NCBI GenBank assembly: GCA_964437865.1
Contig: CAYTJG010000001.1
Location: 5,544 to 69,543 of the forward strand
Length of the DNA: 64,000 nucleotides
Reading direction: 5' to 3'
Source of the DNA: an uncultured Bifidobacteriaceae bacterium
GTDB lineage: Bacteria; Verrucomicrobiota; Verrucomicrobiia; Limisphaerales; UBA11358
Shown: positions 18,698 through 51,279 of the stretch, in pieces
Layout: each line of letters starts with the position of its first letter
How positions within the stretch are numbered: the stretch's first letter is position 1
Program-made: the position numbers and the translations under genes
Notes under the pieces: model-generated
The model's database searches: none
Told to the model about the DNA's origin: nothing
What the model saw: only the letters and a program-made list of their open reading frames with translations

Positions 18698-20152
18698 ATG
18701 AAGCAGACCCTTTACCTTTCCCCGCCCAGTTTTGATGGTTTTGACGGTGGTGCCGGTGCCCGTTACCAGGCGCGGCGGGAAGTGACCAGCTATTGGTATC
18801 CCACCTGGCTGGCACAGCCGGCGGCCATGACGCCCCATTCCCGGTTGCTCGACTGCCCCCCGCACAACATCCACCTTGCCCAGTGCCTGGCCATCGCCAA
18901 AGATTTTGATCTCGTCATCCTCAATACTTCCACGCCGTCATTGAAGAACGACTGCAAGGTGGCGGAAGCCATCAAGGCGCAGAAGCCGGATACCCAGATC
19001 GGTTTTGTCGGCGCCCACACCATGGTGCTGCCCACGGAGACGCTCAAGGCATCGCCCGCCATTGACTGGGTGGGTCGCAAAGAATTTGATTTCACCTGCA
19101 AGGAGGTGGCCGAGGGCCGCGAGTATTCGAGTATCGCCGGCCTGTCCTACAAGAACCGGGAGGGTAAAATCATCCACAATCCCGAACGCGAAATCGTCCA
19201 AGACATGGATGCGCTGCCGTGGGTGGCGGATGTTTACAAGCGAGACCTCCAGATTGATAAATATTTCATCGGCTATTTGCAGCACCCGTATATTTCCATG
19301 TACACGGGTCGCGGTTGTCCCGCGCAATGCAGTTTCTGCCTCTGGCCACAAACCATTGGCGGTCACAAGTACCGCGTGCGTTCGCCGCAAAATGTCGTCG
19401 ACGAAATGGCTCACATGAAGCGCCTGTTTCCGCAGGTGCGGGAGTTCTTCTTTGACGACGACACTTTTACCGCCAATCTGCCGCGTGCCCGCGAGATTGC
19501 AAAGGCATTGGGTAAATTGGGCGTGACCTGGAGTTGCAACAGCCGCGCCAACCTTGATTACGGCACCATCAAACTGTTCAAGGATAACGGTCTGCGCCTC
19601 TTTCTGGTGGGTTATGAGAGCGGCAACGATGAGATTCTCAAGCGCATCAAGAAGGGGGTGACCACCGACGAAATGCGGGCTTTTACCAAGGCCTGCCACC
19701 GAGCCGGCGTGGTGATTCACGGCACCTTTATTCTGGGGCTTCCGGTGGAAACCAAGCAGACCATCGAGCAGACCATCAACTTCGCCAAGGCACTGGACGT
19801 CTTTTCCTTGCAGGTTTCCTTGGCGGCACCGTACCCCGGCACCGAGCTGTATGAGCAGGCCAAACTCAATGGCTGGTTCGTTAAAAAAGACAAGACCGAC
19901 TTGGTGGAAGCCAGTGGCCTGCAACAAAGCACCTTGGAATATCCGGATGCCACCAAGGAAGAAATTTTTGAAGCGGTGGACCGGTTTTACCGTTCTTACT
20001 ATTTCCGGCCAGGCCCGGCTTGGCGCATCTTCAAAACCATGCTGGAAGACAAGCAGGTCTTTATGCGTCGCTGCCGCGAAGCCATGGAATTCTTCACAAG
20101 TCTGTCCCAACGCAAGCAGGATCTGAACAAGGCCCGATCCTCTGGCAATTGA
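18698..20152 (+). CDS. hpnJ: Hopanoid-biosynthesis-associated B12-binding radical SAM protein HpnJ
   Basis: The N-terminus 'MKQTLYLSPPSFDGFDGGAGARYQARREVTSYWYPTWLAQPAAM' is the characteristic HpnJ start as I remember it. A radical SAM 'GRGCPAQCSFCLWP' is also present. The ORF opens at 18464, overlapping hpnA; ATG 18698 fits the family. Confidence 0.75.
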   Translation: MKQTLYLSPPSFDGFDGGAGARYQARREVTSYWYPTWLAQPAAMTPHSRLLDCPPHNIHLAQCLAIAKDFDLVILNTSTPSLKNDCKVAEAIKAQKPDTQIGFVGAHTMVLPTETLKASPAIDWVGRKEFDFTCKEVAEGREYSSIAGLSYKNREGKIIHNPEREIVQDMDALPWVADVYKRDLQIDKYFIGYLQHPYISMYTGRGCPAQCSFCLWPQTIGGHKYRVRSPQNVVDEMAHMKRLFPQVREFFFDDDTFTANLPRAREIAKALGKLGVTWSCNSRANLDYGTIKLFKDNGLRLFLVGYESGNDEILKRIKKGVTTDEMRAFTKACHRAGVVIHGTFILGLPVETKQTIEQTINFAKALDVFSLQVSLAAPYPGTELYEQAKLNGWFVKKDKTDLVEASGLQQSTLEYPDATKEEIFEAVDRFYRSYYFRPGPAWRIFKTMLEDKQVFMRRCREAMEFFTSLSQRKQDLNKARSSGN

Positions 20153-27054: not shown

Positions 27055-27927
27055 CTATTGTCTGCGCTGGGTAAATCCGCGCGGCGACTGGCCCATTATC
27101 CTTTTGAAAACGCGTGAGAAATGATAGGGATCACTAAAACCGGCGTTTAGGGCAATTTCCTTTACTTGCAAACGGCCGGTTATTAGCCATTCGGCGGCGT
27201 GGTTGATTTTTTTTCGAATCAGGTAGCTATACGGGGAGGGGTACCCATGGGACTGGAACAGACGACAAATGTAGCATTTATTCATGCCCGCTGCGTGTGC
27301 GATTTCGTCCAGGTCTCGAAATTCCAAATGGCGAGTGTCAATCATATCTCGACAAGTCTCAAAGGTCTGGGTCGGGCCGCCATCCATCTCGGCGCTGGGT
27401 ATCTGGGCACCCGCCGTTTTCAAAATTAGGATGCGCAGCAGGCTGACGCAGATTTGTGACGTATTTCGCAGACCACGGCCACCTTCTGACAGCAGCATTT
27501 CGAGAAGTGCCCGGCAGTCTTCCAAGTCGGGAAGCTGCCTTGCGGTCCCGGGCGCGACAGAGCCGGATCTCAACAACTGAGCCGCTTCCCGGCCAAAGAA
27601 ATCCACGAAGTATTTGCGCAAGGGATTCTTGGGGTCGCTGATGATGTGATGCCTCGTGGTGGGGCCATAAATGAAAAGGACGCCGGCCCGGAGAGAGAAA
27701 GTTTTTTGATCCAGGTGAACCGTGCCGCTACCGCGTTCGACATACTCAAGACCGTAACAGGGGAAGGTCGAACGCTGGACAGAGTAATCAGGGCGGCAGT
27801 TTTCATGCCCGGCGCACGCAACATGCAGCCGTGGCCGAGACTGCTCTATGCGCTTTTCCAGGTGGCAGTAGCGCGACTGGCTAACTTGGAGGGAAACGGG
27901 TGGAATGGCTTTTGCGCGCATGAGCAA
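27055..27927 (-). CDS. AraC-family transcriptional regulator (cupin sensor + AraC HTH)
   Basis: C-terminal 'MNKCYICRLFQSHGYPSPYSYLIRKKINHAAEWL...VKEIALNAGFSDPYHFSRVFKRIMGQSPRGF' and an N-terminal cupin-like domain. The probable ATG is at 27921. The gene is divergent from the pseudopilin/LamG/GRE block. Confidence 0.85.
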   Translation of the reverse strand: MLMRAKAIPPVSLQVSQSRYCHLEKRIEQSRPRLHVACAGHENCRPDYSVQRSTFPCYGLEYVERGSGTVHLDQKTFSLRAGVLFIYGPTTRHHIISDPKNPLRKYFVDFFGREAAQLLRSGSVAPGTARQLPDLEDCRALLEMLLSEGGRGLRNTSQICVSLLRILILKTAGAQIPSAEMDGGPTQTFETCRDMIDTRHLEFRDLDEIAHAAGMNKCYICRLFQSHGYPSPYSYLIRKKINHAAEWLITGRLQVKEIALNAGFSDPYHFSRVFKRIMGQSPRGFTQRRQ

Positions 27928-27998: not shown

Positions 27999-28796
27999 AT
28001 GACTCCCGGTAATAATCTACTGCGCAAAAAATCAAGTTGCGCGTTCACTTTGATTGAACTGCTGGTCGTCATTGCCATCATTGCCATCTTGGCGGCGTTG
28101 CTATTGCCCGCCTTGGCCAAGGCCAAGGACAAGGCCAAAGCTATTACGTGCATCAACAATTTGAAACAAATGGGAATTGCCCTGCCGCTGTATCGATCTG
28201 ACAACAACGACTACTATCCGTGCGGAATTGATCCTGCCATCGGTTCCGCATGGATTTGGCCGCCGCTGTTGCGGCAATATACCGGCAACAAAAACACGGC
28301 GGTTTTTCAGTGTCCATCCGCGCCTCCGCAATCGCAGTGGGTACTCTCGTTTGGCAGCGGACTACCAGCCATTGACGGCTACCTTCAAAACGAAGTGCAT
28401 TTGATCCCCGGCAGCACCAATTTTATGAGTTATGGCTATAATGTGTGGGGAGTGATCGTCGAGCATAATCCGAATCTGGGATTGGGAGTTTACAAGGATG
28501 ATCATGTCTGGGGCTCTGCAAAGGAAAGCTCGATTGTAAAGCCGACAGACATGATTGCAATCGGCGACAGCAATTGGGATTTGCAAAGGAACGGCGATCC
28601 GGATTGGAGCGGTTTCATAGGCATGTATGCGGAGCGCCAATGGCCATTGGATTTGCACAATCGACGGACAACCATCCTGTTCTGTGACAGTCATGCGCAG
28701 GCCGTGAAGCGCGCATTTGTAGTTTCACAACTGAACACCCCCACCACCGCGCCGGAACCCGACAAACTTTGGAACCGGGACAATCAGTATCACTGA
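27999..28796 (+). CDS. Prepilin-type N-terminal cleavage/methylation-domain protein (pseudopilin-like, DUF1559-like)
   Basis: '[49 protein letters not shown]' is the class III signal plus the conserved helix. The C-terminal '[16 protein letters not shown]' resembles the H-x9-D[GS] end motif of the family. Confidence 0.85.
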
Positions 28797-28907
28797 TGAG
28801 GCGCAGGACTGCCGGAAATTGCTCAAGAAAGGTATTTGTTACGCCTAACGAAGTTCGTGAAAAGAGCTTCACTTTCAAACAATTCGAACAGAAAAAACCC
28901 CAAAACT

Positions 28908-31900
28908 ATGAAAAAAACAAACAAGTGCCTGGCGGCGATTGGTCTGGCAATTGGGCTGGCGCAAATTATTTGCGCTGATTCCACGTGGAATGGCACGATT
29001 ACAAACAATCTGTGGTCTAATCCCAACAATTGGAGTCCGGTGGGCGTGCCACCGCCGGGAAATCCGACGACGACTTTTCAAGGCAATGTTTGGCTGGATC
29101 CTGCCAATGGCGACTCGACGATCACGATTGGCGCCGGCGATGTGGAAAGTCCCGGGGTCGGCAATACGAACGAAGTTTATAACACCATTTTCGGCCCGGA
29201 ATGGGGAGCCACGCTCAATATTTACGGCACCTTGAACTACGACTGGTTTTTGTTCCCGGTGCAGAACGATCCCACGCCGGGAAAACGCAGCTTGATTAAC
29301 ATCTTTACCAATGGGGTCACCAGCACCGCTGGTGCCGCGCTGGGAGTGGGCGATAGTTGGTGGAATACCGGCGCTCCCTATGTAACGGTGAATCTTTATG
29401 GCAACGCTCAACATAGCAGCCTGGGTGGTGCCGGGCTGTGGCTGGGCGGCCATTTGAACATCTATGACGTGGCCACGGTGACCATCGGGACGGGGGGGGG
29501 TGGCTACGTAAACATGGATACCGCCGGGCCGATGTCCGACGGCACTCGTTCCATCAATATGGGCGGCGGCACGCTGATCTTGCCGCCTGGTTTCGCGACC
29601 GCCAACGTTGGTAACTGGATTGCTCGGGGAATTCTCCGCGCGTACGGCAAGGGTTTGGATGCCAATGACCTCGTTATCACGGATAATGGCACGAATGTCG
29701 TCGTCAGCACGGTTCCGCTCGGGGGGGCGCTCCAACAGGTTTATTTTCAGACCTTGCTCGAAACCAACATGGGGGTGGGTTCTTTTCAACAGTCCGTTTT
29801 GGTTGGAGATTATCCCGCCGTCATCGGCGTGCTTTTGAGCTCTCCGGAACCCGGCTTGTCGCCGGCTTCGTTTAGCCAGCCCATTTACACCTCCAGTAAT
29901 CCCAAGGTGGTGGCGGTGGACAGCAACGGCATGATCTCGGCCGTCAGCCCCGGCAATGCCACCTTGACGGCCAAGGTCGGCGCGTTGAATACCACCAATT
30001 CCCTGCTGGTTACCGTCACGCCGCTGGGTGGCAACCTGATTCATCGTTACAGCTTCAGCGAAAGCTCGGGTGCTACCAGCGCTGATATGATTCCCGGAAA
30101 CAGCCCGACTTGGGATGCCACGTTAAACGGCGGAGCCACGCTGGGCGGCGGACAGGTGACCTTGGATGGTTCCAGTGGTTATGTGCAATTGCCAGCCGGA
30201 ATATTGAATGGCTTGGATGAAGTGACGATTCAGGCCTGGGCCAGCTTTGGCTCACCCATCAGTACGTGGGCAAATGTATTTGCCTTCGGCGACACTGATG
30301 GTAATGGAGAAGGGGAAAATTATATTGGTCTGCAAAGGACCGCCAGCGGCACCAGTGCCACTTTTGGCCAGGGAGACCCGGGCAACGCAGCGGAGCGCGA
30401 TGCCGTTTTCAATAGCACCTTGGATGGCCAAAGCAACGTGCAGGTAACCGCGGTCTATCATCCGCTCGCCGGATACGAGGCGCTGTATATCAATGGCTTG
30501 CAAGTCGCGACGATTTCCATGTTTAACAATCAGATTGATCCGGTGGCTTATGCGGGACCGACTTACAACGGCCAGAGCATCCTGGCTTATACCATCGGTC
30601 AGGACAATCTCAACTATATTGGTCATTCGTTGTATGACGGCGACCCAACCCTCAATGGTACCATTGACGAGTTCCGTATTTACAACGGCTGTTTGAATCA
30701 GGCGGAGGTGACGGCTAGTTACCAGGCCGGGCCGAACAACACGAATTACAATCCTGGTAATTTGGTCAGCGTCACCTTTTCCACAATGGAAACCAACCTG
30801 CCGTCCGGCCTCAATTATACGCCCACCACCTTCGCCAACTACGAGTTCGCAACCAACGTTCCGATTGCGACTGACAGCGCGCTGGCGCTGACCTCATCCA
30901 ACACGAACGTCGTCAACGTTGTCGGAAATCAACTGCATACCGGGGTCGGCGGCAGCGCGACGGTGAGCGCTTTTTATGAGGGCAAAACGGCCTCACTGAC
31001 AGTCTATGTTCTCCGCACGCCTGCCGTGTTGCTCCACCGCTGGAACTTCAACGAATCCAGCGGCACGATCGCCCACGACCTGGTGGGGGGAGCGGACGGC
31101 ACGCTGCAAGGAAGTGCGGCCTTTACGGGGTCCGGTTATGTCAACCTGCCGAACCCAGGCAGCAACCCGCAGACCGGCAACAGTTATGTAACCATTCCCG
31201 GCGGCCTGCTCAACAATTTGAGTGCGGTGACTGTGGAATGCTGGGTGACCAACAACGGTTGGAACAATGGCAACACCTTCGTCGGCTTTAGCGGCCCGAT
31301 TGACGAAAACGACTTTGGCACCAACTACATCAACTTTTATGCGCGGATGTACAGCAGCATTTCCGCCTTTGAGATTGCCACGACCTCAGGTGACTCCGGC
31401 CTCGAGGCGCTCGGCACCCGCGTGAACGACAACGGAGTGGCCAGCGGCATCCCGTCGCACTACGTTTATGTCTATGATCCGACGATCACTCACACGATTA
31501 CACTCTACACCAATGGCGTGCTGGCCGGGTCGCAGTCGGGCGCCAGCGTCCCGTTGAGTTCCTTGGGGACGAACGTCGGGACCATCGGGCTTTCCGTCTA
31601 TAGCCAGTCACAGAGTTACACGTTGACGCAAAATGGCGGCAGCAAAATCAACTGCCCGTATCTCAACGGCGGCGTCAACGAAGTGCGCATCTATAATGGC
31701 ATCCTCACGGCAGCGGACGTGGCAGCTACTCAAGCGCTCGGACCAGATCTGACCCTTGGCAGCAACACCGCCGTTTCATTGGAGGCCACCACCTCGGGCG
31801 ACAGCCTGAATCTGACTTGGCCAGTATCGGCGGCCACCTTCGGCGTGCTCAGCAGCCCGACCTTGGGTGCCGACGCGGTCTGGACGCCGGTGAGCGCGAG

Positions 31901-31982
31901 CCTGACGGTTGTGGGAGGCAGCTATAGCGTCACGTTGCCCCTGAACAGTTCGAATCAGTTCTTCCGGCTGCAACAGCATTAA
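28908..31982 (+). CDS. Large secreted LamG (concanavalin-like) / Big_2 domain protein with a conserved C-terminal domain
   Basis: Signal peptide 'MKKTNKCLAAIGLAIGLAQIICA'. Big_2-like 'SSNPKVVAVDSNGMISAVSPGNATLTAKV' and 'SSNTNVVNVVGNQLHTGVGGSATVSAFY'. Two LamG ends, 'TIDEFRIYNGCLNQAEV' and 'VNEVRIYNGILTAADV'. The protein ends '...NQFFRLQQH'. Confidence 0.8.
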   Translation: MKKTNKCLAAIGLAIGLAQIICADSTWNGTITNNLWSNPNNWSPVGVPPPGNPTTTFQGNVWLDPANGDSTITIGAGDVESPGVGNTNEVYNTIFGPEWGATLNIYGTLNYDWFLFPVQNDPTPGKRSLINIFTNGVTSTAGAALGVGDSWWNTGAPYVTVNLYGNAQHSSLGGAGLWLGGHLNIYDVATVTIGTGGGGYVNMDTAGPMSDGTRSINMGGGTLILPPGFATANVGNWIARGILRAYGKGLDANDLVITDNGTNVVVSTVPLGGALQQVYFQTLLETNMGVGSFQQSVLVGDYPAVIGVLLSSPEPGLSPASFSQPIYTSSNPKVVAVDSNGMISAVSPGNATLTAKVGALNTTNSLLVTVTPLGGNLIHRYSFSESSGATSADMIPGNSPTWDATLNGGATLGGGQVTLDGSSGYVQLPAGILNGLDEVTIQAWASFGSPISTWANVFAFGDTDGNGEGENYIGLQRTASGTSATFGQGDPGNAAERDAVFNSTLDGQSNVQVTAVYHPLAGYEALYINGLQVATISMFNNQIDPVAYAGPTYNGQSILAYTIGQDNLNYIGHSLYDGDPTLNGTIDEFRIYNGCLNQAEVTASYQAGPNNTNYNPGNLVSVTFSTMETNLPSGLNYTPTTFANYEFATNVPIATDSALALTSSNTNVVNVVGNQLHTGVGGSATVSAFYEGKTASLTVYVLRTPAVLLHRWNFNESSGTIAHDLVGGADGTLQGSAAFTGSGYVNLPNPGSNPQTGNSYVTIPGGLLNNLSAVTVECWVTNNGWNNGNTFVGFSGPIDENDFGTNYINFYARMYSSISAFEIATTSGDSGLEALGTRVNDNGVASGIPSHYVYVYDPTITHTITLYTNGVLAGSQSGASVPLSSLGTNVGTIGLSVYSQSQSYTLTQNGGSKINCPYLNGGVNEVRIYNGILTAADVAATQALGPDLTLGSNTAVSLEATTSGDSLNLTWPVSAATFGVLSSPTLGADAVWTPVSASLTVVGGSYSVTLPLNSSNQFFRLQQH

Positions 31983-32110: not shown

Positions 32111-34387
32111 ATGCCTGATGCCCGCGAAGAGATCCCTGCTTTGAAACTAGTTTACGGAAACCGCCTGAAAGTGTTGGCCGAGCGTCGCGATCGATTGGGG
32201 CGAGAAGGCCGGCGCAGCAACTTTGTGGACAACCCGGAATTCCTGGTTTATCACTGGTCGGGCGTGGGCGAAGGCTTTGCCCCGCCCACCGGCGAGCAGG
32301 CGGTCAGCCGGCGCCTCAACATCGGCGACAACAATTGCCGTGTTGCCCTGGGCATGCCTTTCCCGCACGCGGCAGAAATGCCATCACGCCAGCACGGCCA
32401 CGTGAACGATGTGCTCAACTGGGCGCGGGATTACGCATTCTTTCTGGACCACAATCCCTGTGAAATCCATCCCGAGGAGGAGGTGGTCGGCGAATTTCAC
32501 TGGCAGTTGGACGAGGCGCGGCGTTTCCGGTATCCCGACGACGTGCGGGAAGCGGGTTTCAATGCGCGAAAATTGGGCGCGGGCGGCATTAGCTACGCGC
32601 ACACCTGCCCCGATCTGTCAATCGGTCTGGAATTGGGCTGGGGCGGATTGCTCACGAAAGTCCGCCAATGGAAGGCCAGGCATGAGGCCAACGGCAACGA
32701 GCCGGCAGCGCGTTATCTGGCCGGCCAGGAATTGGTCGTGACCAGCATCCAACGCTGGGTAAAACGCCATGCGGAGAAGGCCGCCAAACTCGCTCATGAA
32801 GCGCCGCCCGAATTGGCCCGACATTATCTCGTCGTGGCGACAACGTGCGAAGCCATCATCAGCAAGCCACCGCAGACATTTTTGCAGGCCATCCAATGGC
32901 TTCAGTTTTTTCAACTGGCCGAGCGCATTATCGCGCATGGCAATGGCTATGGCCGGCTGGACCAGTTGCTGCTGGATTTTTACCGGCGCGACCTGGCTGC
33001 CGGGCGGATGGCGCGCGAGGAGGCACGCGAATGGCTCGCCGAATTATTCTGCAAATATGGCGGCAATTATTTTTCCGTGGGCGGGCGCGACCGGCTGGGC
33101 CGCGATGCCACCAACGAATTGAGCCGCGTCGTTCTTGAGGCCTACGACTTGAACGGCGGTGACAACAACCTCGGCGTGATGTGGCACGTGGACATGGACA
33201 AGTCATTCTTTAACTACGCCTGCGAAGTGCTGGGCCGCCACGGGACGGGTACGCCGGTGCTCATTAATTATGACGTATTACGCGACAGCGAACTGCGCAG
33301 CGGTGTCAGCGATGAGCACGCCTGGAACGTTGCGTATTCCGGCTGCCAGTGGTATTGCGTGGTCGGCCGTGAATACAACGACCAGGATTTGAATTCGCTC
33401 GTGTTGTTGCAGCCCATGGGGCGTGCCATCCGCCGGGCGGTTGAGGCGGACGTGAAACGTTTTGACGAGTTGTTCCGCCTTTTGAGCGAGGAGACCATGG
33501 CTACCGCGATGGCGTTGCGCGATTTAAAGAACGCCACGTATATGTGGCAGTGCCGCGTCTGGCCGGAGATGGTTACTTCGCTCTGCATGCACCACTGTAT
33601 TGAGCGCGGACGCGATTGTACCGCTGCTGGCGCAGTGGATTACAATCTGACTTCGGTGAATATTCTCGGCGTGCCGAACGTGTCGGACTCGCTTCAGGCC
33701 ATCAAGCAACTGGTTTTCGACGAGTGTCGCTACACTCTTGCCGAGGTGGAATCGGCCGTCAAATCCGACTGGGCCGGGCAAGAGCCAATGCGCCGTGAAT
33801 TTCTCAACGCGGAAAAATTCGGGAACGACCTGGCGGGGCCAGACGCGATGATCGTGCGCCTGTCTGAAATGGTGCAGGAGTGCCTGGAATCACTGCGTCA
33901 TAACAAAGGCGGGCATTTTCGCGCGTCGCTCTTTCAATACATGGGGCACACCTATGCCGGGCCGATGCTGGGGGCCACGCCGGACGGACGCCATGCCGCT
34001 GAGCCGCTGGCACATGGCATGAACCCCATGCACGGGCGGAACACGAAGGGTATGACCGCCACGGCCAATTCCTTTTGCAAGGTGAACTTCCGAAAATTCC
34101 AGGGCGGCTCGTTTCAGATTGAACTGGAGCCGACTTATTTTCCCGAAAGCGCCCGCCGTAGCGACATGATTGAAGTGTTTGCGCGCACCTTTTTCAAGCT
34201 CGGCGGCGTGCAAATAAACTTGAACATCCTGTCCCTGGAAAAGTTGAAACTGGCGATGGAGCGGCCGGAACTGCCAGAACATCAGGCCATCATCGTGAAG
34301 GTAACGGGCTACTCGTCGCACTTCCTCATCATGGACCGGAAATTCCAAGAGGAGTTTGTTCAGCGCGTGAATTACCCAACGCTCTGA
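32111..34387 (+). CDS. Glycyl radical enzyme (PFL2 / dehydratase-lyase-type fold) with an atypical Cys loop
   Basis: 'QTFLQAIQWLQFFQLAERIIAHGNGYGRLDQLLLDFY', 'GRDATNELSRVVLEA', the Cys loop 'VAYSGCQWYCVVGREY' (Cys codon 33344-33346) and the glycyl radical motif 'IIVKVTGYSSHFLIM' (Gly codon 34307-34309). The ORF opens at 32012, but ATG 32111 follows the stem-loop. Confidence 0.85.
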   Translation: MPDAREEIPALKLVYGNRLKVLAERRDRLGREGRRSNFVDNPEFLVYHWSGVGEGFAPPTGEQAVSRRLNIGDNNCRVALGMPFPHAAEMPSRQHGHVNDVLNWARDYAFFLDHNPCEIHPEEEVVGEFHWQLDEARRFRYPDDVREAGFNARKLGAGGISYAHTCPDLSIGLELGWGGLLTKVRQWKARHEANGNEPAARYLAGQELVVTSIQRWVKRHAEKAAKLAHEAPPELARHYLVVATTCEAIISKPPQTFLQAIQWLQFFQLAERIIAHGNGYGRLDQLLLDFYRRDLAAGRMAREEAREWLAELFCKYGGNYFSVGGRDRLGRDATNELSRVVLEAYDLNGGDNNLGVMWHVDMDKSFFNYACEVLGRHGTGTPVLINYDVLRDSELRSGVSDEHAWNVAYSGCQWYCVVGREYNDQDLNSLVLLQPMGRAIRRAVEADVKRFDELFRLLSEETMATAMALRDLKNATYMWQCRVWPEMVTSLCMHHCIERGRDCTAAGAVDYNLTSVNILGVPNVSDSLQAIKQLVFDECRYTLAEVESAVKSDWAGQEPMRREFLNAEKFGNDLAGPDAMIVRLSEMVQECLESLRHNKGGHFRASLFQYMGHTYAGPMLGATPDGRHAAEPLAHGMNPMHGRNTKGMTATANSFCKVNFRKFQGGSFQIELEPTYFPESARRSDMIEVFARTFFKLGGVQINLNILSLEKLKLAMERPELPEHQAIIVKVTGYSSHFLIMDRKFQEEFVQRVNYPTL

Positions 34388-34406: not shown

Positions 34407-35402
34407 ATGGACTCACCCACCGCGCTGGTCTTTGACGTGCATCGCAACTCGACCCACGACGGGCCGGGCATCCGCACAACTATCTTTCTCAAAGGCTGCC
34501 CGCTGCGCTGCCAGTGGTGCCACAATCCGGAGAGCCGGGGGGGAACCCCGGAAGTCTGGTGGTTCGGCCAGAACTGCATCAGTTGTTTCCGCTGCGTCGA
34601 GGCTTGCAGCCGGAAGGCCTTGACTTCAACGGAAGCTGGCATACTGATTGACCGTGCCAAGTGCGAAGGCTGTCAGGACTGCGTCCGCGCGTGTCCGGCG
34701 CGCGCGCTGCGACCGGTTGGTGAGTGGAGAACACTTTCGGAGTTGGTGGCGGAAGCAGAGTCGGATCGCGTCTGGTATGAAGCCACCGGCGGCGGGGTGA
34801 CCTTGTCCGGCGGTGAACCGTGTGCGCAACCGGATTTCGCGATGGCATTTTTGGCGGGCTGCCGCGAGCGCGGGTTACACACGGCACTGGACACGTGCGG
34901 CCAGGCGGCAACGGGAACTTTTGCTCGGGTGCTCGATGGCGTTGATCTGGTTTTGTTTGATTTGAAACATCCGAACGAAGCCGTCCACCGGGAACTCACG
35001 CATGCCGGGCTGTCGACTATTCACGCCAATCTGCGGGAAGCGGCCAGGCGCGCGCGTGTGAAACAACTGAAGCTCTGGATTCGGACGCCGCTGATTCCTG
35101 GCGCAGCGGCGGCGGCGGCGGTGCTGAAGGACCTCGGAAATCTTTTGCGCAACGAATTTGCCGGCGCCATCGAACGGTGGGAGCTGTGTGCTTTTAATCC
35201 TTCGTGCCGCGCAAAGTATCACCGGCTGGGTCTGATCTGGCCATATGAAAACGAAGGACTGCTGGACGAGGCCAGCGCCGCCTGCTTTCTGGCGGTTGCG
35301 CAGAAGGCGTTTGGAGATGAAGCGCTCGTTCATCTGCAAGGAATTCGCCGCAGCCCGACGACAAACAAACAAACTTGCTTGAAACCGGCCGTGCATAATT
35401 GA
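34407..35402 (+). CDS. Glycyl radical enzyme activating enzyme (radical SAM with two auxiliary 4Fe-4S motifs)
   Basis: '[26 protein letters not shown]' (CX3CX2C), ferredoxin-type '[16 protein letters not shown]' and '[16 protein letters not shown]', and '[10 protein letters not shown]'. It lies 20 bp after the GRE stop. Confidence 0.9.
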
Positions 35403-35409
35403 AAAAATC

Positions 35410-36816
35410 ATGACCATGACAGTGGCAGAAAAAACGTCGGTGCTGACCAATGCCAAGCCCCGCGGCGGCATGTTCCGCGCACCCGGTGGCGGGAGCTACG
35501 CGGTGACGTTTGTGCTCGTTTGTTCACTGTTTTTGCTCTGGGGCCTGTGCAACACCTTGCTGGACGACCTCAACAAGCACTTTCAGAATTCGCTCCATGT
35601 CACCAAGGCTCAGTCGGGACTCGTACAGGGCATTTGGTACCTTGCCTATTTTGTGATGGCATTTCCAGCGGGTTGGGTCGCAAAGCGAACCGGCTATCGC
35701 GGAGGTATTCTCGCCGGGCTGGGAATCGTGATTGTCGGCTCGTTGCTCTTCATTCCAGCCGGCAGGGTTGACGCCCCGCAGTCGGTGCACTTTGCGATTT
35801 TTCTCACGGTTCTATTCGTCCTCGCGACGGGCTTGGTCTTTCTCGAAACCATCGCGAATCCCTATACAACCGTGCTGGGACCGACGGAAACTTCGGTCAG
35901 CCGAATTAATCTTGCGCAGTCGTGCAACGGCGTCGGCTCCATTATTGGTCCGTTCATCGGTGCGACGTTCATTCTGTCGCAGACCGCCGCAGTGAACACC
36001 AGCAACGCGAGTCTCTACCTGCCATATCTCGTGATCGCCGGCGTCGTGGCCGTGATGATGATTATCTTTGCCTTCGCCCCGATTCCCGAGCTCAACGCGC
36101 CCGAAGAGGCGAAGAATCCCCGGACTCCCGCCGAGCATGTGCGCCCGCTTGGGCACGAAAGACACTACGTATGGGGGGTAGTCTCACAGTTTTTCTACTG
36201 CGCTGCGCAGACCGGTATCTTTAGCATTTTTATCAACTATGTGCGAGACGACAGGCACATGCCGCCATTGCCGCTCTGGCTCACCAAACAGCTGCCCGAC
36301 ACAATGAAATACCTTGAGGGGGGAAGTTGGCACATCACTGAATATGCCGCCGGCGTGATGCTCTCCGGGGCGTTCATATTTTTCACGGTTGGGCGTTTCT
36401 CTGGAAGCGCGATTCTGCGTTATTTTTCGCCCCACCGCACATTGGGCTTTTACGCACTGATCAATGTTGTGTTGATGGTGCTGCTGTTCTTGAACCTCGG
36501 GTGGCTTTCGGTGGCCTCGTTAGTGCTAAGTTTTTTCTTCATGTCGATCATGTATCCCACGCACTTTGCGCTCGCGATTCGCGGCCTCGGCGGTCGCACA
36601 AAATTTGGTGCGGCTGGCATGGTTACGGCCATTCTCGGCAGCGGTCTGGGCCCGATTAGCATGGGTTGGATTGCGGATCACTACGGTATGGCGGACGGCT
36701 TTTTGTTGCCCCTGGCATGCTTCAGCTTCATCGCCTGCTATGGCTTTGCGTGGAGCAGCTTGTTCGCTCGCGATATGGAGCCGGAATCAGATAGAGCGCC
36801 CGGGCGCACTCACTAA
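35410..36816 (+). CDS. FHS-family MFS sugar:H+ symporter, L-fucose permease (FucP)-like
   Basis: Collinear with E. coli FucP as remembered: 'FVLVCSLFLLWGLCNTLLDDLNKHFQ', 'LETIANPYTTVLGP', 'INLAQSCNGVGSIIGP', 'FFYCAAQTGIFS', 'FFMSIMYPTHFALAIRGLG'. It lies 8 bp after the activase stop. Confidence 0.8.
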   Translation: MTMTVAEKTSVLTNAKPRGGMFRAPGGGSYAVTFVLVCSLFLLWGLCNTLLDDLNKHFQNSLHVTKAQSGLVQGIWYLAYFVMAFPAGWVAKRTGYRGGILAGLGIVIVGSLLFIPAGRVDAPQSVHFAIFLTVLFVLATGLVFLETIANPYTTVLGPTETSVSRINLAQSCNGVGSIIGPFIGATFILSQTAAVNTSNASLYLPYLVIAGVVAVMMIIFAFAPIPELNAPEEAKNPRTPAEHVRPLGHERHYVWGVVSQFFYCAAQTGIFSIFINYVRDDRHMPPLPLWLTKQLPDTMKYLEGGSWHITEYAAGVMLSGAFIFFTVGRFSGSAILRYFSPHRTLGFYALINVVLMVLLFLNLGWLSVASLVLSFFFMSIMYPTHFALAIRGLGGRTKFGAAGMVTAILGSGLGPISMGWIADHYGMADGFLLPLACFSFIACYGFAWSSLFARDMEPESDRAPGRTH

Positions 36817-36941: not shown

Positions 36942-38756
36942 ATGAAATCAAACATGATAACCAGAATGAAAAGGCTGAATGCGCTCTTCTCCGCGGCGCT
37001 TTTATTGTGCGTTACCGGCTGGGCGCAAACCAACCGCACGCCGACCTTTGAAGCCATTTATCAACGGAAAATTCCGGCTTGGTTCAACGAGGCCAAGTTC
37101 GGAGTGTTCATCGTCTGGGGCGTTTATTCGGTTCCTGGTTGGGCGCAGAAGGGCCAATATGCCGAATGGTACGGCCATAACATCCTGGATCAGGGCAGCC
37201 CTTCGCAACAATATCACGAGCGCGTCTGGGGCAAGCACTTTACCTACGACCAGTTTGTGCCGCTGCTTAGCGGCGAAGGTTTTGACGCCAACGAATGGAC
37301 TTCGTTGATCCAGAAAGCCGGCGCAAAATATGTCGTCACCGCCGCCAATTACCACGATGGCTTCGCGATGTATCCGACCACGTATGCCGTCTCGAAATTC
37401 GGTGATCACTGGAACGCATTTGATCGGGGACCTCATCGCGATGTGCTGGGCGAACTCGAAGCCTGCGGCAACGCCAAGGGTTTGAAGATGGGTATTTATT
37501 ACTCCCTCTACGAATGGTGGAATCCGCTATATATGAGCGGACAGCTTGAAAAATATGCGCGCGACCATCTGGGACCTAAGTTCAAGGAAGTCGTCACCCG
37601 GTACCATCCTCCGGTGATCTTTCTCGACGGCGAATGGGAGCATCCTTATCAAACATGGCATTCGGATGAGCTGGCGAATTGGCTTTACACTGAATCGCCG
37701 GTGAAGGACGAGGTGGTCGTGAATGACCGCTGGGGCTGGGTGCGTGGAAAGTATGGCGATTACTTGTCCAGCGAATACGGCGGCGGCGACTATCCGCCGA
37801 CGCACCCGTGGCAGGAAGATCGCGGCATCGGCAACAGCTACGGATACAATCGCAACGAGGATGCATGGGATTATAATACACGACAAACGCTGGTGCGTTT
37901 GCTTTCCACTGTTTGCGGCAACGGCGGCAATCTCCTGCTCGATATTGGGCCGACGGCCGACGGCCGCATTCCGCCCATTATGGAGGAACGTCTGTTACAA
38001 ATCGGCGACTGGCTCAGCAAAAATGGCGCGGCCATCTACGGGAGTGGTGCCAGCCCGTTCTGGCCCCGCAAATTTGAGTGGGGCGTGTGCACCGCGAAGG
38101 GTGACACGGTGTTCCTGCATCTTTTTGATCAATCCACAAAGAGTTTGGATATCAAGGGGTTTTCCGCCGACGTGGAAGGCTGCAAGTATCTCGCCACCGG
38201 CGCGGACCTGAAGTTCGCCACGCGCAAAGACGAACTGCACCTCGACCTAACTCCCGTGAAGCCTGACAGCGACGACACCGTGATCGCGGTGAAAATCCAT
38301 GGCAAACTCAAAGCCGACAAACGACCGCACCAATACGAAAGCGGCAGGATTCTGATATCCGCATGGTCATTAACGATTAACGGCTCCAAGGCAAAAATGC
38401 GGTTCGACGGTTTTGAAAAAATCGCGCATATCACAGACTGGACAGATCCGTCCGAAACGGCGTCCTGCAGATTCGTGGTTAACCAACCGGGGCGCTATCA
38501 AGTCAGTGTAACCTATTGTAGCGACAAAAACAGCGCAGGCTCCGCAGTCATTTTAAACTTTAACAATCAGAAAATCGATTTTGTTTCCGGTGACACTGGC
38601 GGTTGGAGTGGTGGAAATTACCAAAACATGAATTGCGGAACGATTTCGCTTTCCCAAGTGGGCGAGCAGCAGCTTTCCATCGTGCCCGTGGCGAATGGCT
38701 GGAAAAATATCGCCATCAAACAAATTCTTTTGACGCCGGAAAAGCGGCGGTCATAG
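36942..38756 (+). CDS. GH29 alpha-L-fucosidase with a C-terminal beta-sandwich (CBM-like) domain
   Basis: A signal peptide, then 'IPAWFNEAKFGVFIVWGVYSVPGW...YAEWY', 'AKYVVTAANYHDGFAMYPT' and 'GGNLLLDIGPTADGRIP' typical of GH29. The last ~150 aa form a CBM-like module. Confidence 0.8.
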   Translation: MKSNMITRMKRLNALFSAALLLCVTGWAQTNRTPTFEAIYQRKIPAWFNEAKFGVFIVWGVYSVPGWAQKGQYAEWYGHNILDQGSPSQQYHERVWGKHFTYDQFVPLLSGEGFDANEWTSLIQKAGAKYVVTAANYHDGFAMYPTTYAVSKFGDHWNAFDRGPHRDVLGELEACGNAKGLKMGIYYSLYEWWNPLYMSGQLEKYARDHLGPKFKEVVTRYHPPVIFLDGEWEHPYQTWHSDELANWLYTESPVKDEVVVNDRWGWVRGKYGDYLSSEYGGGDYPPTHPWQEDRGIGNSYGYNRNEDAWDYNTRQTLVRLLSTVCGNGGNLLLDIGPTADGRIPPIMEERLLQIGDWLSKNGAAIYGSGASPFWPRKFEWGVCTAKGDTVFLHLFDQSTKSLDIKGFSADVEGCKYLATGADLKFATRKDELHLDLTPVKPDSDDTVIAVKIHGKLKADKRPHQYESGRILISAWSLTINGSKAKMRFDGFEKIAHITDWTDPSETASCRFVVNQPGRYQVSVTYCSDKNSAGSAVILNFNNQKIDFVSGDTGGWSGGNYQNMNCGTISLSQVGEQQLSIVPVANGWKNIAIKQILLTPEKRRS

Positions 38757-39001: not shown

Positions 39002-41620
39002 ATGAAAAGACTGACATTAAAATTATGCTGTACGCTCGCCGCTGCGTCCTTGGCGCTATCGTCAAAGGCTCAGTTTGCCATAGCGGACGTGGGAACCACC
39101 GCTCCCACGCCGGGGCCGAATGACGTATATTGTATCATCCCAAGCATCCAAGATAATGATGGCCTGAATTATTATTGGGATAACGGTAATCCGGTTGGCC
39201 AGACCTTTGTCACGGGATCGAACTCCACCGGTTACACGTTGATGAGCTTGGCACTTATGACCGCTGGCAACGGAGGCAGTTGGGGAAGTGGGGCGGCCGC
39301 CTCGGTATTGGCGTCACAGAACTTCACCTTGACGATCTACTCCATTGATGAAAGCGGGAATGCCACCCCGGTGGCGACCAATTCGACCGTTGGAGCGTTG
39401 ATTACCCAGGGTGATTGGATGCAATGGAGCGGACTTGGTGTGCCGCTGTTGCCCAATATGAATTATGCTTATACCTTCAAAGACGGCGATACCGATTCAG
39501 GTGGGAATTGGGAACAGTTGGCCAACAACGGCAATAATCCGTATACCAATGGGCAGATTTGCAGCATTCCCGTCGGTGGCGGCGCGGTGGAATTCGGCAA
39601 CAGCGGCATTTCGGATGCGGTGTTTGATATTGGTCTGGCGCTGGGAACTGCGCCCGGCGGTACGGTGACGATTGCGGATATTGGCGCGAACGCACCGACA
39701 CCGGGAGCCAACGATATCTCGCAGTTGCTGCCCACGGTTGTTCCCATGCAAAACAACTATGGCTTGAATTATTATTGGGACAGTGGTGCGGGCGAGACCT
39801 TCCAAACGCCGAGCAGCACTGTTCCGTGGTTGTTGACCAATCTTGTAATCGGAACCGGTGGCAATGGTGGCGGTGGCCAGACTGCCGCCCAGGCTTTTGT
39901 CCTGAGAATTTACTCTGTTACGAACAACGGCGCGACCGCCATATTGATTTATTCGAATTCCTACAACACTTCACTCAATGCAGATTTGGATTGGATGCAG
40001 TGCAGCGGAATGAATCTCAGGTTGAATCCCAATCAACAATATGCCTACACCTTTTATCGCGGCAACAGCGGAAGTTGGGAACAAATGGCTGATTACGACC
40101 ACCATCCTTATTCAGGCGGCATGATTTGCCTGATTCCACCCGCCGGCGGCACAATTGAATATGGTAGTCAAAGCGGGAATAGTTCCTCGGATGCGGCATT
40201 TGACGTGGGTCTCGCGGCCGAATCGGTTTATGCGCAAATTCCAACCTATACACCCGAAGTTAATCCCATATACGCCGGCACGCCCGTGACTCTGAGTGAA
40301 GCTCCAGTGGGCACCGGGACGATGTCTTTTCAATGGCAGACCGATGGCGGATCCGGCGGCACATTGACAAATATTCCAGGTGCATCCAGCTCCAATTTGC
40401 TGGTAAGTACAGCCGGCTTGGCTGCGGGAACATTCAATTACGACGTGGTTGTCAAAACGATGGCCGGGGGCGGCATCTCCTCCACCAGCGCCGTGGCGCC
40501 GCTGACGATCATTGCTGCGAGCGCGCCTTTCCTTGTGACGGATACGACGGCGTCGCCCAATGCTGCAAGCAACTACGTGGGATTAAGTCAAATCTACTCA
40601 GCCTCGTTCTCCGGAACCTTGCCATTTGGTTACCAATGGTATGTTGCCTCCAACGTTAGCGGGTCCGGATCAACCCCGGTAGCTGGCGGAACCAATGCAA
40701 CGCTGGTGCTGAACAACCTGCAACTTGCTAACAGTGGTTATTATAGCTTGCAGGCGACCAATAACGTATATCCCTACAGCCTCAACAGCAGTTGGACGCA
40801 ACTGACGGTGTTCCCGGCCGCAGACATGCTGGTTCATTGGCAGGCGCCGGTGGTGTTCAACGGCCTCACGGCCGGCCAAATATTGACAAACAATATACCG
40901 GGAACATTTTTCGAAGGCGCCTATTTTGGCACTGCCACCGAACCCATTCCGGTTGTGCTGAACGGCGTTACCAACACTTTTTACGGTGATGGGTCAACTA
41001 TTTCAATCAGCGGCCAAGATGGCGAAAATCAGGGAACTTGGCTGACGGGTGGCATTACCACTGGAGATACAAATCTCGATACCATCCTCAACCAGTTCGC
41101 TTACAACATCAGTACAGGCACTCAGTTGATGTCCATTCATAATTTGCTTTTGGGAACGAACTACTATGTCCAAATTTTTGCGTTGGATGACCGCCTGGCT
41201 GGCGCGGGGCAATTCACGTCGTTTCAAAATCCCACGGACAATGCCGATGTTTCAGCCGCCTGGGCAATGTCGGCAAACAACTATGTCGTGGGCACCTTTA
41301 CCGCTCCCAACACTGACGTGGACATTCAACAAAATCTGTTTCCGGTTGGCAGTTTGAATGCCGTGATAGTTGGAACGGCAATTCAGAGCCTGGTTAACAC
41401 CAACCCATTGACGGTAAACTTCAAGGCCACACTGTCGGGGCAGGCGTTGAAATTCACGTGGTCCGCCGACCACCAAGGGTGGCAACTCTATACCAATGCG
41501 GTGGGAGTGGCCGCAACCAATAGCTGGTATCCAGTTTCAGGTTCGGCCAACGGAACCAGCCAGACGATCACGCTGGATCCTACCAAATCCAACGTGTTCT
41601 TCGAATTGCGCTATCCGTAA
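39002..41620 (+). CDS. 872-aa secreted multi-domain protein (tandem N-terminal ~195-aa modules, Ig-like domains, conserved C-terminal domain)
   Basis: Signal peptide 'MKRLTLKLCCTLAAASLALSSKA'. Two homologous modules ('IADVGTTAPTPGPND...GLNYYWDNG...DAVFDIGLA' and 'IADIGANAPTPGAND...GLNYYWDSG...DAAFDVGLA'). Ig-like 'NATLVLNNLQLANSGYYSLQATN'. The protein ends '...SNVFFELRYP'. Confidence 0.7.
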   Translation: MKRLTLKLCCTLAAASLALSSKAQFAIADVGTTAPTPGPNDVYCIIPSIQDNDGLNYYWDNGNPVGQTFVTGSNSTGYTLMSLALMTAGNGGSWGSGAAASVLASQNFTLTIYSIDESGNATPVATNSTVGALITQGDWMQWSGLGVPLLPNMNYAYTFKDGDTDSGGNWEQLANNGNNPYTNGQICSIPVGGGAVEFGNSGISDAVFDIGLALGTAPGGTVTIADIGANAPTPGANDISQLLPTVVPMQNNYGLNYYWDSGAGETFQTPSSTVPWLLTNLVIGTGGNGGGGQTAAQAFVLRIYSVTNNGATAILIYSNSYNTSLNADLDWMQCSGMNLRLNPNQQYAYTFYRGNSGSWEQMADYDHHPYSGGMICLIPPAGGTIEYGSQSGNSSSDAAFDVGLAAESVYAQIPTYTPEVNPIYAGTPVTLSEAPVGTGTMSFQWQTDGGSGGTLTNIPGASSSNLLVSTAGLAAGTFNYDVVVKTMAGGGISSTSAVAPLTIIAASAPFLVTDTTASPNAASNYVGLSQIYSASFSGTLPFGYQWYVASNVSGSGSTPVAGGTNATLVLNNLQLANSGYYSLQATNNVYPYSLNSSWTQLTVFPAADMLVHWQAPVVFNGLTAGQILTNNIPGTFFEGAYFGTATEPIPVVLNGVTNTFYGDGSTISISGQDGENQGTWLTGGITTGDTNLDTILNQFAYNISTGTQLMSIHNLLLGTNYYVQIFALDDRLAGAGQFTSFQNPTDNADVSAAWAMSANNYVVGTFTAPNTDVDIQQNLFPVGSLNAVIVGTAIQSLVNTNPLTVNFKATLSGQALKFTWSADHQGWQLYTNAVGVAATNSWYPVSGSANGTSQTITLDPTKSNVFFELRYP
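39071..40230 (+). repeat. Internal tandem duplication (two ~195-codon modules) within the 39002-41620 gene
   Basis: Module 1 spans roughly 39071-39650 and module 2 roughly 39650-40230. Conserved strings appear in the same order in both: IAD[VI]G..APTPG.ND, GLNYYWD.G, GNGG, IYS, DWMQ.SG, YAYTF, WEQ, SDA.FD[IV]GLA. Confidence 0.7.
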
Positions 41621-41672: not shown

Positions 41673-42418
41673 GAGGCAAAGCTGGACACATGAAAGCCGC
41701 CGTTTTGTTTTGATCGGAACGCCACGGCCAACAGTCCCCGGCGCTGCTGGTGCCTCACCGACTGCCTCGTCTGGTTGATGTATTTCCGCAAGGTCGCGAT
41801 GTCTCGAACTTTGAACCCCCGGGTGAAATTCACTGCGGTGTTCGGGTCAGGTGTGAGTGCTTGAACAAGCCTGATTCAATCCGGGTGCACGGGCGGAATG
41901 AGCTTTTTTGCTTTACTAACTCTCTTGAATCACGCTTGTTGAAGGACTAGTCCCGCAGGACTTGAAGCGAAGCGCCTGGATGGTTTTGTCGCAGCGCTTT
42001 GCATCGCTCCGGGCAACTTGCATTGTCATAAAGGGTTAAAAGGACGACATTACAACTCCAGAAGATGTCATTACAACATTATCTTAAATTGAAGTAATTG
42101 CGCTTTAATTTCGCCGCCGGCGCAATCAAAGTAGCGCTGTTCCACACAGGTTCTGAATCAGCCAATTTTGATCACGATCCTTTTCACACATGAGGACTAC
42201 ACGATGCTCTATTGCTGTCGAAATCAACAAATGAGTTTCGTTTCACCCTCACCGGTAGCCGCCACCTGGTCATCGTGGTGGAAGGTTGCGCGAATCATGT
42301 TCAAGGTTGTCTGGCAGCCCATGCAATCCCGCGCGCTGGCGACTGGCGCGTTTCGTTTCGATGCTCCTCAGTGGGCGAGTTATCCAAGCCGCTTTTGCCG
42401 TCTTCGGACACCAAGATT

Positions 42419-44004
42419 ATGACCCACACCAATCTAAGGTTAACGGTTTACCTAATCGCGGCAACCTTATTCGCTGGCGGCCCATTGATTGCGGCGGATG
42501 GCCAAACCAGTGGCAAAAACATTTTCAAATCACCGGACATTCCGGCACACCCGGCCTCGTATTCCGAACCATTACGGCCACAATACCACTTCACCCCGGA
42601 AAAGAACTGGATGAATGATCCTGATGGCCTGGTGTTTTACGCCGGCGAATACCACCTCTTTTACCAATACAACCCACTCGGAAACATCTGGGACCACATG
42701 AGTTGGGGCCACGCCGTAAGCACGGATCTGATCCACTGGAAACATCTGCCAGTGGCGTTGCGGGAGGCTGATGGCCTCATGATCTTTACAGGCAGTGCGG
42801 TGGTGGATTGGAATAAAACCAGCGGCTTTGGCCTGGATGGTAATCCCCCTTGGTTGCCATTTACGCGGCTTATCGTCGGTCGGACAACGTGCAGTTTGAG
42901 TGCATCGCCTACAGCAACGACAGAGGTCTCACGTGGACAAAGTACGCTGGCAATCCCGTCATTAATCTGAACTCAAAGGATTTTCGCGATCCAAAAGTGC
43001 AATGGCATCAAGGCACCGGACGCTGGATCATGACGGTGGCGCTCTCGGTCGAGCACAAAATCTGCTTTTATGGTTCCAAAAACTTGGAGGATTGGACCTT
43101 ATTGAGCAAATTTGGCCCTGCGGGAGCAATTTCCGGGGCTTGGGAATGCCCGGACCTCTTCGAATTGCCAGTGCAAGAAGGCAAAGAAAAGCTATGGACG
43201 TTGACCATCAGTGTGGACGCTGGATTGGCTGGGGGCTCGGTGGGACAATACTTCGTGGGTACATTCGACGGTACTCGTTTCACGCCAAATCCGGCGCCGG
43301 CACTACTCTACGACTACGGGCCTGATTGCTACGACACTGTCTCTTGGAGTGATGTTCCAAAGACGGACGGGCGTCGGCTCTGGCTTGGTTGGATGGGCAA
43401 CTGGGCCTACAGCTACAACGCGCCCACCTCACCGTGGCGCGGCACCATGTCAATCCCGCGTGAACTTCACCTGCGCAAAACCAGCGAAGGCGCCCGATTG
43501 GCTCAAACGCCGGCCAGAGAAATGAAATCCTTGCGGGATAAACACTATGAATTCAAAGGAGGCAATATTGCGGAGGCCAACGCGTGGATCGCCGGCAATC
43601 AGATTGCCGGAAAGCCACTTGAACTGATCATTGCCTTCGCGCCAAGGCCGCATGGCGTTGAAGGGGTGAAGGTCTTGAAGAACACCAGCGAGGGTACGGC
43701 GATTGGGGTGGATCACACGCACGCGCAGATTTTTCTGGATCGATCGCGTTCTGGGAACGTGGACTTCCATCCCAAATTTCCAGGCATTTATCGCGCGCCG
43801 TTCGTTACCGGGAACCAACCGGTAAGCCTCCAGATTTTCGTCGACACCGGCTCCGTGGAAGTTTTTGCCAACCATGGCGAATGCGTTCTCACCGGGCTCG
43901 TATTCCCGAGTCCGGATAGTCGAGGCGTGGAAGTGTTCGGAACGGACCCGGCGACAAAGATCCTCTCCGTGGACGTGTGGACATTGAAGTCCATTTGGAA
44001 CTAA
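42419..44004 (+). pseudogene. GH32 beta-fructofuranosidase/levanase-type gene interrupted by a 1-nt frameshift at 42844-42850
   Basis: Frame 1 gives a signal peptide, then '[34 protein letters not shown]' up to 'GLDGNPP'. Frame 2 continues '[32 protein letters not shown]...FRDPKV...WECPDLF'. The intact paralog at 54676 reads 'GKDGKPPLVAIYTG...' across the same point. The break falls in 'aatCCCCCTTgg'. Confidence 0.8.
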
Positions 44005-51265: not shown

Positions 51266-51279
51266 TAGTGAAAAATACA

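Follow-up and report, generated by a model that had tools for sequence, protein, structure and literature searches.

What might a glycyl radical enzyme (GRE) do when its active-site loop carries a tryptophan in place of the usual glutamate, and on which substrate would it act? This question is raised by a gene at 32111..34387 (+ strand) in a stretch of 64,000 nt from contig CAYTJG010000001.1 (GCA_964437865.1, positions 5,544-69,543, forward strand), which we call the window and whose coordinates are used throughout. The source is labelled as an uncultured Bifidobacteriaceae bacterium, with the GTDB lineage Verrucomicrobiota; Verrucomicrobiia; Limisphaerales; UBA11358. The gene encodes a GRE of 758 aa, a member of the core GCQWYC family of what we describe here as the Cys-x-Trp (C-x-W) group. 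According to a review of the superfamily from June 2026, all eliminases and isomerases carry a C-x-E loop in which the Glu acts as base, two Cys-loop cysteines, adjacent as C-C, occur in PFL and TdcE only, and none of the seven GRE classes has a C-x-W loop or a free-sugar substrate (PMC13450708). The background given in an initial annotation of this locus (C-x-E in eliminases with Glu as base, C-C in PFL) is borne out by this review.

The Cys loop, G411-C412-Q413-W414-Y415-C416, is encoded at 33341..33358 (+) and the stretch 'GTPVLINYDVLRDSELRSGVSDEHAWNVAY' sits directly before it; the translation agrees with the initial annotation in both respects, and also in the numbering of C412, W414 and C416 from the ATG at 32111. 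In a phmmer comparison with the PDB sequences, 'ysGCQWYCvvGR' pairs with 'vvGCVELSipGR' of PflD, and a profile built from 60 family members aligns GCQWYC with the catalytic loops of glycerol dehydratase (GDH, 'GCVEPQ'), propanediol dehydratase (PD), HpyG and both PflD entries. The mapping parsed from the GDH alignment equates C412 with C433, W414 with E435, C416 with Q437 and D426 with D447, and further H164 with H164, H276 with H281, G277 with S282, F608 with Y640 and G733 with G763. Two of these positions, both invariant in the profile alignment, are His164 (32600..32602, +), the equivalent of GDH His164 and PD His166, the proposed general acid, and Asp426 (33386..33388, +), the equivalent of GDH Asp447. 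The glycyl radical motif V-K-V-T-G733-Y-S (34295..34315, +) aligns with VRVAG763YS of GDH. In the AlphaFold2 model the loop forms a hairpin, with a strand at residues 407-409, a tip at 410-414 and a return strand at 415-417 on which C416 lies. We also considered another Cys with an adjacent Glu as the radical site, and rejected it: five displayed alignments and the model all give C412. By alignment and model, W414 replaces the glutamate of C-x-E and C412 stands at the predicted thiyl position; the loss of the Cys/Glu dyad that the initial annotation had suspected is thus seen in the aligned loop. The placement of C416 relative to C412, and the stacking of W414 discussed below, are drawn from secondary structure and alignment.

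The open reading frame (ORF) is intact from ATG 32111 and matches the Pfam domains PFL-like (PF02901, 3e-83) and Gly_radical (PF01228, 1e-14), i.e. the barrel and the C-terminal glycine radical domain. This start was chosen because the homologue alignments begin at residue 1; a longer version from a TTG at 32012 was discarded, as no homologue supports it. The AlphaFold2 model, computed from the alignment, reaches a pLDDT of 89.3 and a pTM of 0.91, and Foldseek relates it to 50 GRE chains in the PDB (TM 0.76-0.82, about 0.8 for GREs of the PFL2 type, at most 24% identity); these were generic GRE matches only, with no closer structural relative. The gene for a GRE-activating radical SAM enzyme (34407..35402, +; TIGR02494, 282 bits against a cutoff of 174) begins 20 bp past the GRE; its product has a CPLRCQWC cluster motif (CX3CX2C) at residue 31 and two ferredoxin-like motifs. 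Domains, the Cys at the loop tip and the activase all place the enzyme in the PFL-like GRE superfamily. As judged from its genes, the GRE system is intact and has its activase adjacent; glycyl radical formation and turnover are predicted. Residues 1-160 (32111-32590) have no match to PDB GREs at the sequence level, since alignments begin near residue 160, but contain many invariant positions (e.g. Y47-H-W-S-G51, G72-D73, R77, N103, D107-Y108, F129, W131, E135 and R137) and are modelled with high confidence as a mostly non-helical region.

A word-index search returned 518 relatives, of which we examined the best 120 (56-100% identity). The loop reads GCQWYC in 118 of these and GCQWFC in the other two, so that Cys+2 is Trp in 120/120; because it is conserved through all homologues examined, the loop is not a chance or private substitution. 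A 60-sequence alignment has a mean column identity of 68% and about 200 invariant columns, with the radical Gly, the Cys and the whole loop among them: invariant are H164, H276-G-N-G-Y-G-R282, C412, Q413, W414, C416, E421, D426, C492 and V-K-V-T-G-Y-S. The conservation of Q, W and C in orthologs, which the initial annotation had proposed to assess, is therefore complete in these 60 sequences. A genome scan found 68 distinct loci carrying the family in at least nine phyla. Hosts belong to the Verrucomicrobiota, Acidobacteriota (Terracidiphilus), Bacteroidota (Labilibacter, Carboxylicivirga, Draconibacterium), Spirochaetota (Treponema), Bacillota (Faecalicatena contorta, F. fissicatena, Blautia hominis, Diplocloster), Chloroflexota, Kiritimatiellota (Pontiella), Planctomycetota and Lentisphaerota, and also include Photobacterium sagamiensis. 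In public databases the homologues are labelled 'formate C-acetyltransferase', 'pyruvate formate lyase family protein', 'choline trimethylamine-lyase' or 'hypothetical'. In one set of loci (L005-L013) the GREs are 80-89% identical across metagenome-assembled genomes (MAGs) labelled Verrucomicrobiota, Acidobacteriaceae/Terracidiphilus and even Bifidobacteriaceae. This points to mis-binning, to recent horizontal transfer between bacteria of soil and peat, or to both.

The tryptophan extends beyond this core family. When 1.84 billion cluster representatives were searched exhaustively with HMMER, 4,468 relatives were obtained; the best 150 were aligned, and 141 of them are full-length (representatives at 50% identity). 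Cys+2 is Trp in 24 of the 141 and the canonical C-x-E is present in 103. The C-x-W loops read GCQW[YF]C, GC[FY]WYC, GCFWYV, GCHWWG, GCQWMG, GCNWFC, GCNWM[SA], GCHW[TS]A, GCHWF[GN], ACPWYS and GCGWYS. Asp stands at the GDH-447 position in all 24 C-x-W representatives, against 17 of the 103 with C-x-E; His164 is retained in 22/24, and a Thr precedes the radical Gly in 21/24, mostly as R/K-V-T-G-[FY]. A Cys at +4 occurs in 6/24 only, the rest having A, S, V, G or N. When 136 full-length sequences are placed in a neighbour-joining tree, the query and the 24 other C-x-W proteins (25 in all) come out as an exclusive group without a single C-x-E member. Given this exclusive group and the patchy +4 Cys, the Trp is a hallmark of a monophyletic lineage and the second Cys a trait of sub-lineages. 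Distant C-x-W members also lie among genes for sugar transporters, SIS, Gfo/Idh/MocA, beta-helix and sugar-type AraC proteins; the surroundings of P0130, P0133, P0155, P0134 and P0122 are short contigs or uninformative. One distant member (P0142, at 2644-5802 of locus L079) is a natural activase-GRE fusion of 1052 aa with the loop GCNWFC, and adjoins a Gfo/Idh/MocA oxidoreductase gene. Taken together, we have little doubt that this is a real, conserved and non-canonical group of GREs, and the new subclass that the initial annotation had suggested is a fair reading of a conserved change within an exclusive group.

None of the characterised GREs that we compared has the same loop, be it in NCBIfam, in the PDB or in the review cited above. 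In NCBIfam release 20 no equivalog cutoff is reached: the PFL2-3 subfamily model gives 297 (cutoff 678), and the eliminase equivalogs HypD, HpfG and CutC give 206, 192 and 152 (cutoffs 1100, 1000 and 1050). No description of a Cys-x-Trp GRE family was found in the literature, and no solved structure among the PDB sequence, profile and fold matches has such a loop. Measured against the individual classes, the enzyme lacks the C-x-E of the eliminases (GD, PD, HypD, CutC, IslA/IseG, HpsG) but has their proton-donor His; it likewise lacks the C-x-E of the isomerases (PflD, YbiW, HplG) and the adjacent Cys-Cys of the formate lyases (TIGR01255, 86 against a cutoff of 994). By sequence, its nearest known relatives are PflD, YbiW, glycerol dehydratase and propanediol dehydratase, none of which exceeds 24% identity. 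PflD/YbiW (8yjo, 8id0, 8id7) are the best PDB matches (E 5e-55 with phmmer, 1e-80 with the profile; TM about 0.8; about 21-24% identity) and have the same activase type. They open the six-membered sugar ring of 1,5-anhydrohexitol-6-phosphates by radical cleavage of a C-O bond (PMC13450708). However, they keep C-x-E, with Glu433/Glu443 hydrogen-bonded to a substrate OH, where the GRE described here has C-Q-W; their substrates are phosphorylated via the phosphotransferase system or a kinase, whereas in the window operon a permease for free sugar and fucosidases accompany the GRE; and the score for the PflD-type equivalog NF007437 is 235 against a cutoff of 1109. The B12-independent glycerol and 1,2-propanediol dehydratases (1r8w/1r9d, 5i2a/5i2g) share with it the equivalents of His164/His166, His281, Asp447, the thiyl Cys and the radical Gly, and propanediol dehydratase also belongs to anaerobic fucose catabolism. 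They differ in that, at the positions of GDH Glu435, Ser282 and Tyr640, the GRE described here has Trp, Gly and Phe, that it lacks the Tyr339 insertion and scores below the TIGR01774 subfamily cutoff, and that its loci show no microcompartment or aldehyde-handling context. Phenylacetate decarboxylase (PAD/PhdB) has an essential Gln484 (PMC13450708). It decarboxylates an aromatic acid, has no Trp at +2, occurs in an unrelated context and is not among the closest matches. If its catalytic Cys is residue 482, as we presume, Gln484 would be Cys+2 and PAD another GRE without C-x-E. With regard to the X-succinate synthases, BSS and MASS are among the weaker PDB matches, and no conserved cluster of small ORFs is present in 73 loci, in which the accessory subunits were not specifically searched.

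The main functional clue, which the initial annotation had not included, is the fucose context. Directly after the activase, the window operon encodes a FucP-like MFS permease of the L-fucose:H+ symporter family (35410..36816, +; TIGR00885 fucP, 277.9 bits, just under the cutoff of 280.4) and a GH29 alpha-L-fucosidase (36942..38756, +; Pfam Alpha_L_fucos, 1.5e-97). Across genomes, the ORFs of 73 loci were clustered, and 66 loci remained after removal of redundancy. The activase adjoins the GRE in 56 of these 66, and an AraC-type regulator is next to the GRE in 35. FucP-like MFS and GH29 genes (the latter often in 2-3 copies) are each found in 22/66 loci, followed by LacI (13/66), ribose-type ABC transporters (10/66), URO-D/MtaA-like genes (9/66), PhyH-like genes (8/66), xylose-isomerase-like TIM barrels (5/66), GH95 and RhaT-like genes (4/66 each) and FucI (3/66); a RhaM-like mutarotase occurs in 7 of all 73 loci. 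At least one fucose-specific gene (for a FucP-like permease, a GH29 or GH95 fucosidase, or FucI) lies within 10 kb of the GRE in 33/66 loci; among the 31 loci whose two flanks each extend over 5 kb or more, 16 have one. In Blautia hominis, for example, the locus consists of a two-component regulator, GRE, activase, GH29 and an oligosaccharide ABC system, while those of Diplocloster and Treponema TIM-1 are reduced to AraC, a monosaccharide (ribose-type) ABC transporter, GRE and activase; in L014 and L053 an SSF sugar symporter is the transporter beside GRE and activase. In a spirochaete locus (L002) the GRE stands together with FucK, FucI, a class-II aldolase and a mutarotase. We conclude that the family is probably linked to the use of fucose or another 6-deoxyhexose.

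Several arrangements in these loci are worth recording in their own right. A Phycisphaerales MAG (L053, 7572-14340) encodes an SSF transporter, a RhaM-like mutarotase, the CQW GRE, one activase and then a second, canonical GRE that passes TIGR01774 and whose best PDB match is the 1,2-propanediol dehydratase 5i2a (E 1e-194); there is no second activase among the annotated ORFs, and the two GREs may share the one. Multi-copy URO-D/MtaA-CmuA-like genes flank C-x-W GREs in Spirochaetes (L002, 14208-16603; L023; L029; L067), and in L074 (5397-6557 and 9904-11160) such genes flank the GCFWYC relative P0123. A PhyH-like Fe/2-oxoglutarate (2OG)-oxygenase homologue is encoded just after the activase in L027, L035, L045, L049 and L022, and also in L009, often followed by a xylose-isomerase-like TIM barrel. 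It weakly matches 'sporadic carbohydrate cluster 2OG-Fe(II) oxygenase'. Here an O2-dependent type of enzyme is found in one operon with an O2-sensitive GRE; the two could be an aerobic/anaerobic pair for one step.

The remaining genes around the operon complete its picture. An AraC-family regulator (27055..27927, -; Pfam HTH_18, AraC_binding, HTH_AraC) is divergent from the operon-like run, whose first gene encodes a prepilin-type N-terminal-methylation/DUF1559 protein (27999..28796, +; Pfam N_methyl, SBP_bac_10 (DUF1559)). It is followed by a large LamG/Ig-like protein (28836..31982, +; Pfam Laminin_G_3 in two stretches, Big-like), which is probably secreted and glycan-binding. Behind the fucosidase lies a gene for a large secreted repeat protein (39002..41620, +; weak Ig_3 match only) whose membership in the operon is uncertain. 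Both sugar operons of the window, fucose/GRE and fructan/GH32, open with a pair of genes for a large LamG protein and an N_methyl (DUF1559) protein (27999-31982 and 48953-52161, both +), in opposite order, and this pair may be a recurring Verrucomicrobial module for glycan capture. A GH32 gene is split into two overlapping ORFs (42212-42970 and 42850-44004, +) whose Glyco_hydro_32N matches abut exactly (1-81 and 82-307), probably owing to a frameshift, be it of a pseudogene or from an assembly error. A radical SAM protein with a B12-binding domain (18464-20152, +), 12 kb upstream, appears unrelated to the GRE operon.

From the loop and the context together we propose a functional GRE that belongs, among the PFL2/dehydratase-like enzymes, to a Cys-x-Trp group not described before and that acts on imported L-fucose without a Glu base, a reading for and against which we see the scales as level. 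Free L-fucose is the most likely substrate because the minimal operons pair a monosaccharide transporter with the GRE, and because fucose-specific genes are commoner than rhamnose genes; that the enzyme acts on free L-fucose by C-O cleavage is, more specifically, a possible but tentative assignment. The substrate would be an imported free 6-deoxyhexose, L-fucose in the case of the window operon, and the activase is of the type that would install the radical on the Gly motif (Gly733). Trp and Tyr are the kinds of residue that stack on pyranose faces, and W414 and Y415 may do so here. The thiyl radical on C412 would then abstract a ring C-H and the vicinal C-O bond would be cleaved, by dehydration or by ring-opening isomerisation; His164 would protonate the leaving oxygen, and a residue outside the loop, Asp426 or His276, might take over any deprotonation, unless none is required. 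The reaction could be a ring dehydration to deoxy-keto-fucose, the formation of 2-deoxy-fuconolactone via C1-H abstraction, or a ring opening as in PflD. An anomer-specific step would be in keeping with the recurrent mutarotase, and a deoxy-keto or deoxy-lactone product would pass to enzymes encoded elsewhere.

The initial annotation had considered a canonical 1,2-elimination unlikely. As far as the lost dyad is concerned this holds, but for elimination as such the statement is too strong, because the enzyme retains Asp426 as well as His164, which is proposed to donate a proton to the leaving OH; C-O cleavage with a different base, or with none, remains the most economical reading. Several observations weigh against an action on L-fucose. 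No recognisable fucose gene lies within 10 kb in half of the 66 loci; canonical FucI, FucK and FucA stand beside the GRE in L002, and it is not obviously their replacement; no enzyme consistent across the loci was found that would take a deoxy-keto-fucose product further; and the PhyH-like, xylose-isomerase-like TIM barrel and URO-D/MtaA-like genes recur in subsets of loci only.

In another reading, the enzyme would act at the C3 end of fucose catabolism, as a non-canonical analogue of propanediol dehydratase whose substrate is L-lactaldehyde (e.g. with its hydrate dehydrated radically to propionate) or (S)-1,2-propanediol. The diol dehydratase residues His164 and Asp447 have their equivalents in the GRE, the L002 enzyme adjoins FucI, FucK and the class-II aldolase at a place where no lactaldehyde reductase is visible, and an excreted acid product would need no downstream enzymes. 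However, the association is with fucosidases and fucose permeases and not equally with rhamnose genes, which would give the same C3 compounds, and the minimal operons couple the GRE directly to a monosaccharide transporter. Moreover, none of the GRE loci was seen to contain genes for a microcompartment shell or an aldehyde dehydrogenase, and the glycine-rich HGNGYG in place of HSISPA of GDH may reflect a larger pocket. Identity as a propanediol dehydratase was rejected, as a second one would be redundant where, as in L053, the canonical PD-like GRE neighbours the CQW enzyme. Overall, we regard a C3 substrate as unlikely.

Alternatively, the substrate might be a decorated fucose, O-methylated or sulfated, from which methanol or sulfate would be eliminated by spin-centre shift. 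A good leaving group or a different proton inventory would then make the Glu base dispensable. In favour of this idea are the multi-copy URO-D/MtaA-like homologues, which accompany the relative P0123 as well, and the PhyH-like 2OG-oxygenase homologues, both enzyme types being able to demethylate ethers; sulfatases are found in marine loci, and R604 is conserved in the nearest subgroups. Such partners are, however, limited to a minority of loci (9 and 8 of 66) and none is present in the window, every URO-D and PhyH match lies far under its family cutoff, and no corrinoid protein was seen at these loci. In addition, the family is widespread in taxa from soil, peat, gut and termites, where such sugars are rare. 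We therefore give the decorated sugars a low probability.

The second cysteine allows a further proposal, which the initial annotation had put forward as conceivable: that C412 and C416 form a PFL-like pair of thiols, with a radical relay, a covalent acyl or formyl intermediate and C-C cleavage. The GRE does share with PFL/TdcE the fold and a pair of cysteines at or close to the Cys loop; C416 does not vary within the core family, and a +4 Cys recurs in the neighbouring subgroups FWYC, YWYC and NWFC. In PFL, however, C418 and C419 are direct neighbours at the tip of the loop; in the GRE described here the spacing is four residues, and the second Cys aligns with Q437 of GDH; alignment with PFL/TdcE is limited to the C-terminal radical domain, and no CoA-dependent partner (phosphotransacetylase, acyl-CoA enzyme) was seen in the loci. 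Because the +4 Cys is patchy within the C-x-W group and is placed on the strand behind the loop tip, a two-thiol role of this kind is very unlikely.

The radical Gly itself deserves a separate look. The published GRE fingerprint is RVxG[FWY]x6-8[FL]x4Qx2[IV]x2R; the sequence here, KVTGY...M....Q..F..R, departs from it by the conservative changes R to K, L to M and I to F. The strict fingerprint is matched by 0 of the 120 best relatives, whose radical Gly is kept all the same, and the family consensus around it is VKVTGYS[AS]HF, with Thr732 before the retained Gly733; the change of the radical Gly to Ala, Ser or Thr that marks an aminoacyl radical enzyme (AARE) is not seen. A degenerate, non-catalytic relic would account for these departures (K for R, T before G) and for the absent C-x-E glutamate, but is extremely improbable in view of the intact ORF, the strong conservation over at least nine phyla and the activase kept at most loci.

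Returning to free L-fucose as the substrate, the enzyme could represent an eighth functional class, the first GRE on a free, unphosphorylated hexose, with a Trp-bearing loop and a Glu-independent radical cleavage of C-O (or C-C) bonds; we put this forward as a minority view among the outcomes we can envisage. PFL-like GREs that cleave C-O, C-N or C-S bonds, as reviewed to mid-2026, all use the Cys-x-Glu dyad. A large, exclusive and conserved group in which the Glu is replaced by Trp therefore points to a new way of performing spin-centre-shift chemistry or to a new reaction. The link to fucosidases and fucose permeases provides a concrete, testable substrate hypothesis, and cultured hosts are at hand, e.g. 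Blautia hominis, Faecalicatena contorta, F. fissicatena, Diplocloster, Labilibacter marinus and Pontiella sulfatireligans. If the proposal is true, a kinase-independent anaerobic route for fucose would be common to soil Verrucomicrobiota and Acidobacteriota, marine Bacteroidota and Kiritimatiellota, termite Treponema and human-gut Lachnospiraceae. Fucose is a major sugar of host glycans and of plants and algae, and a radical route for it would alter the annotation of anaerobic fucose use in gut and soil metagenomes.

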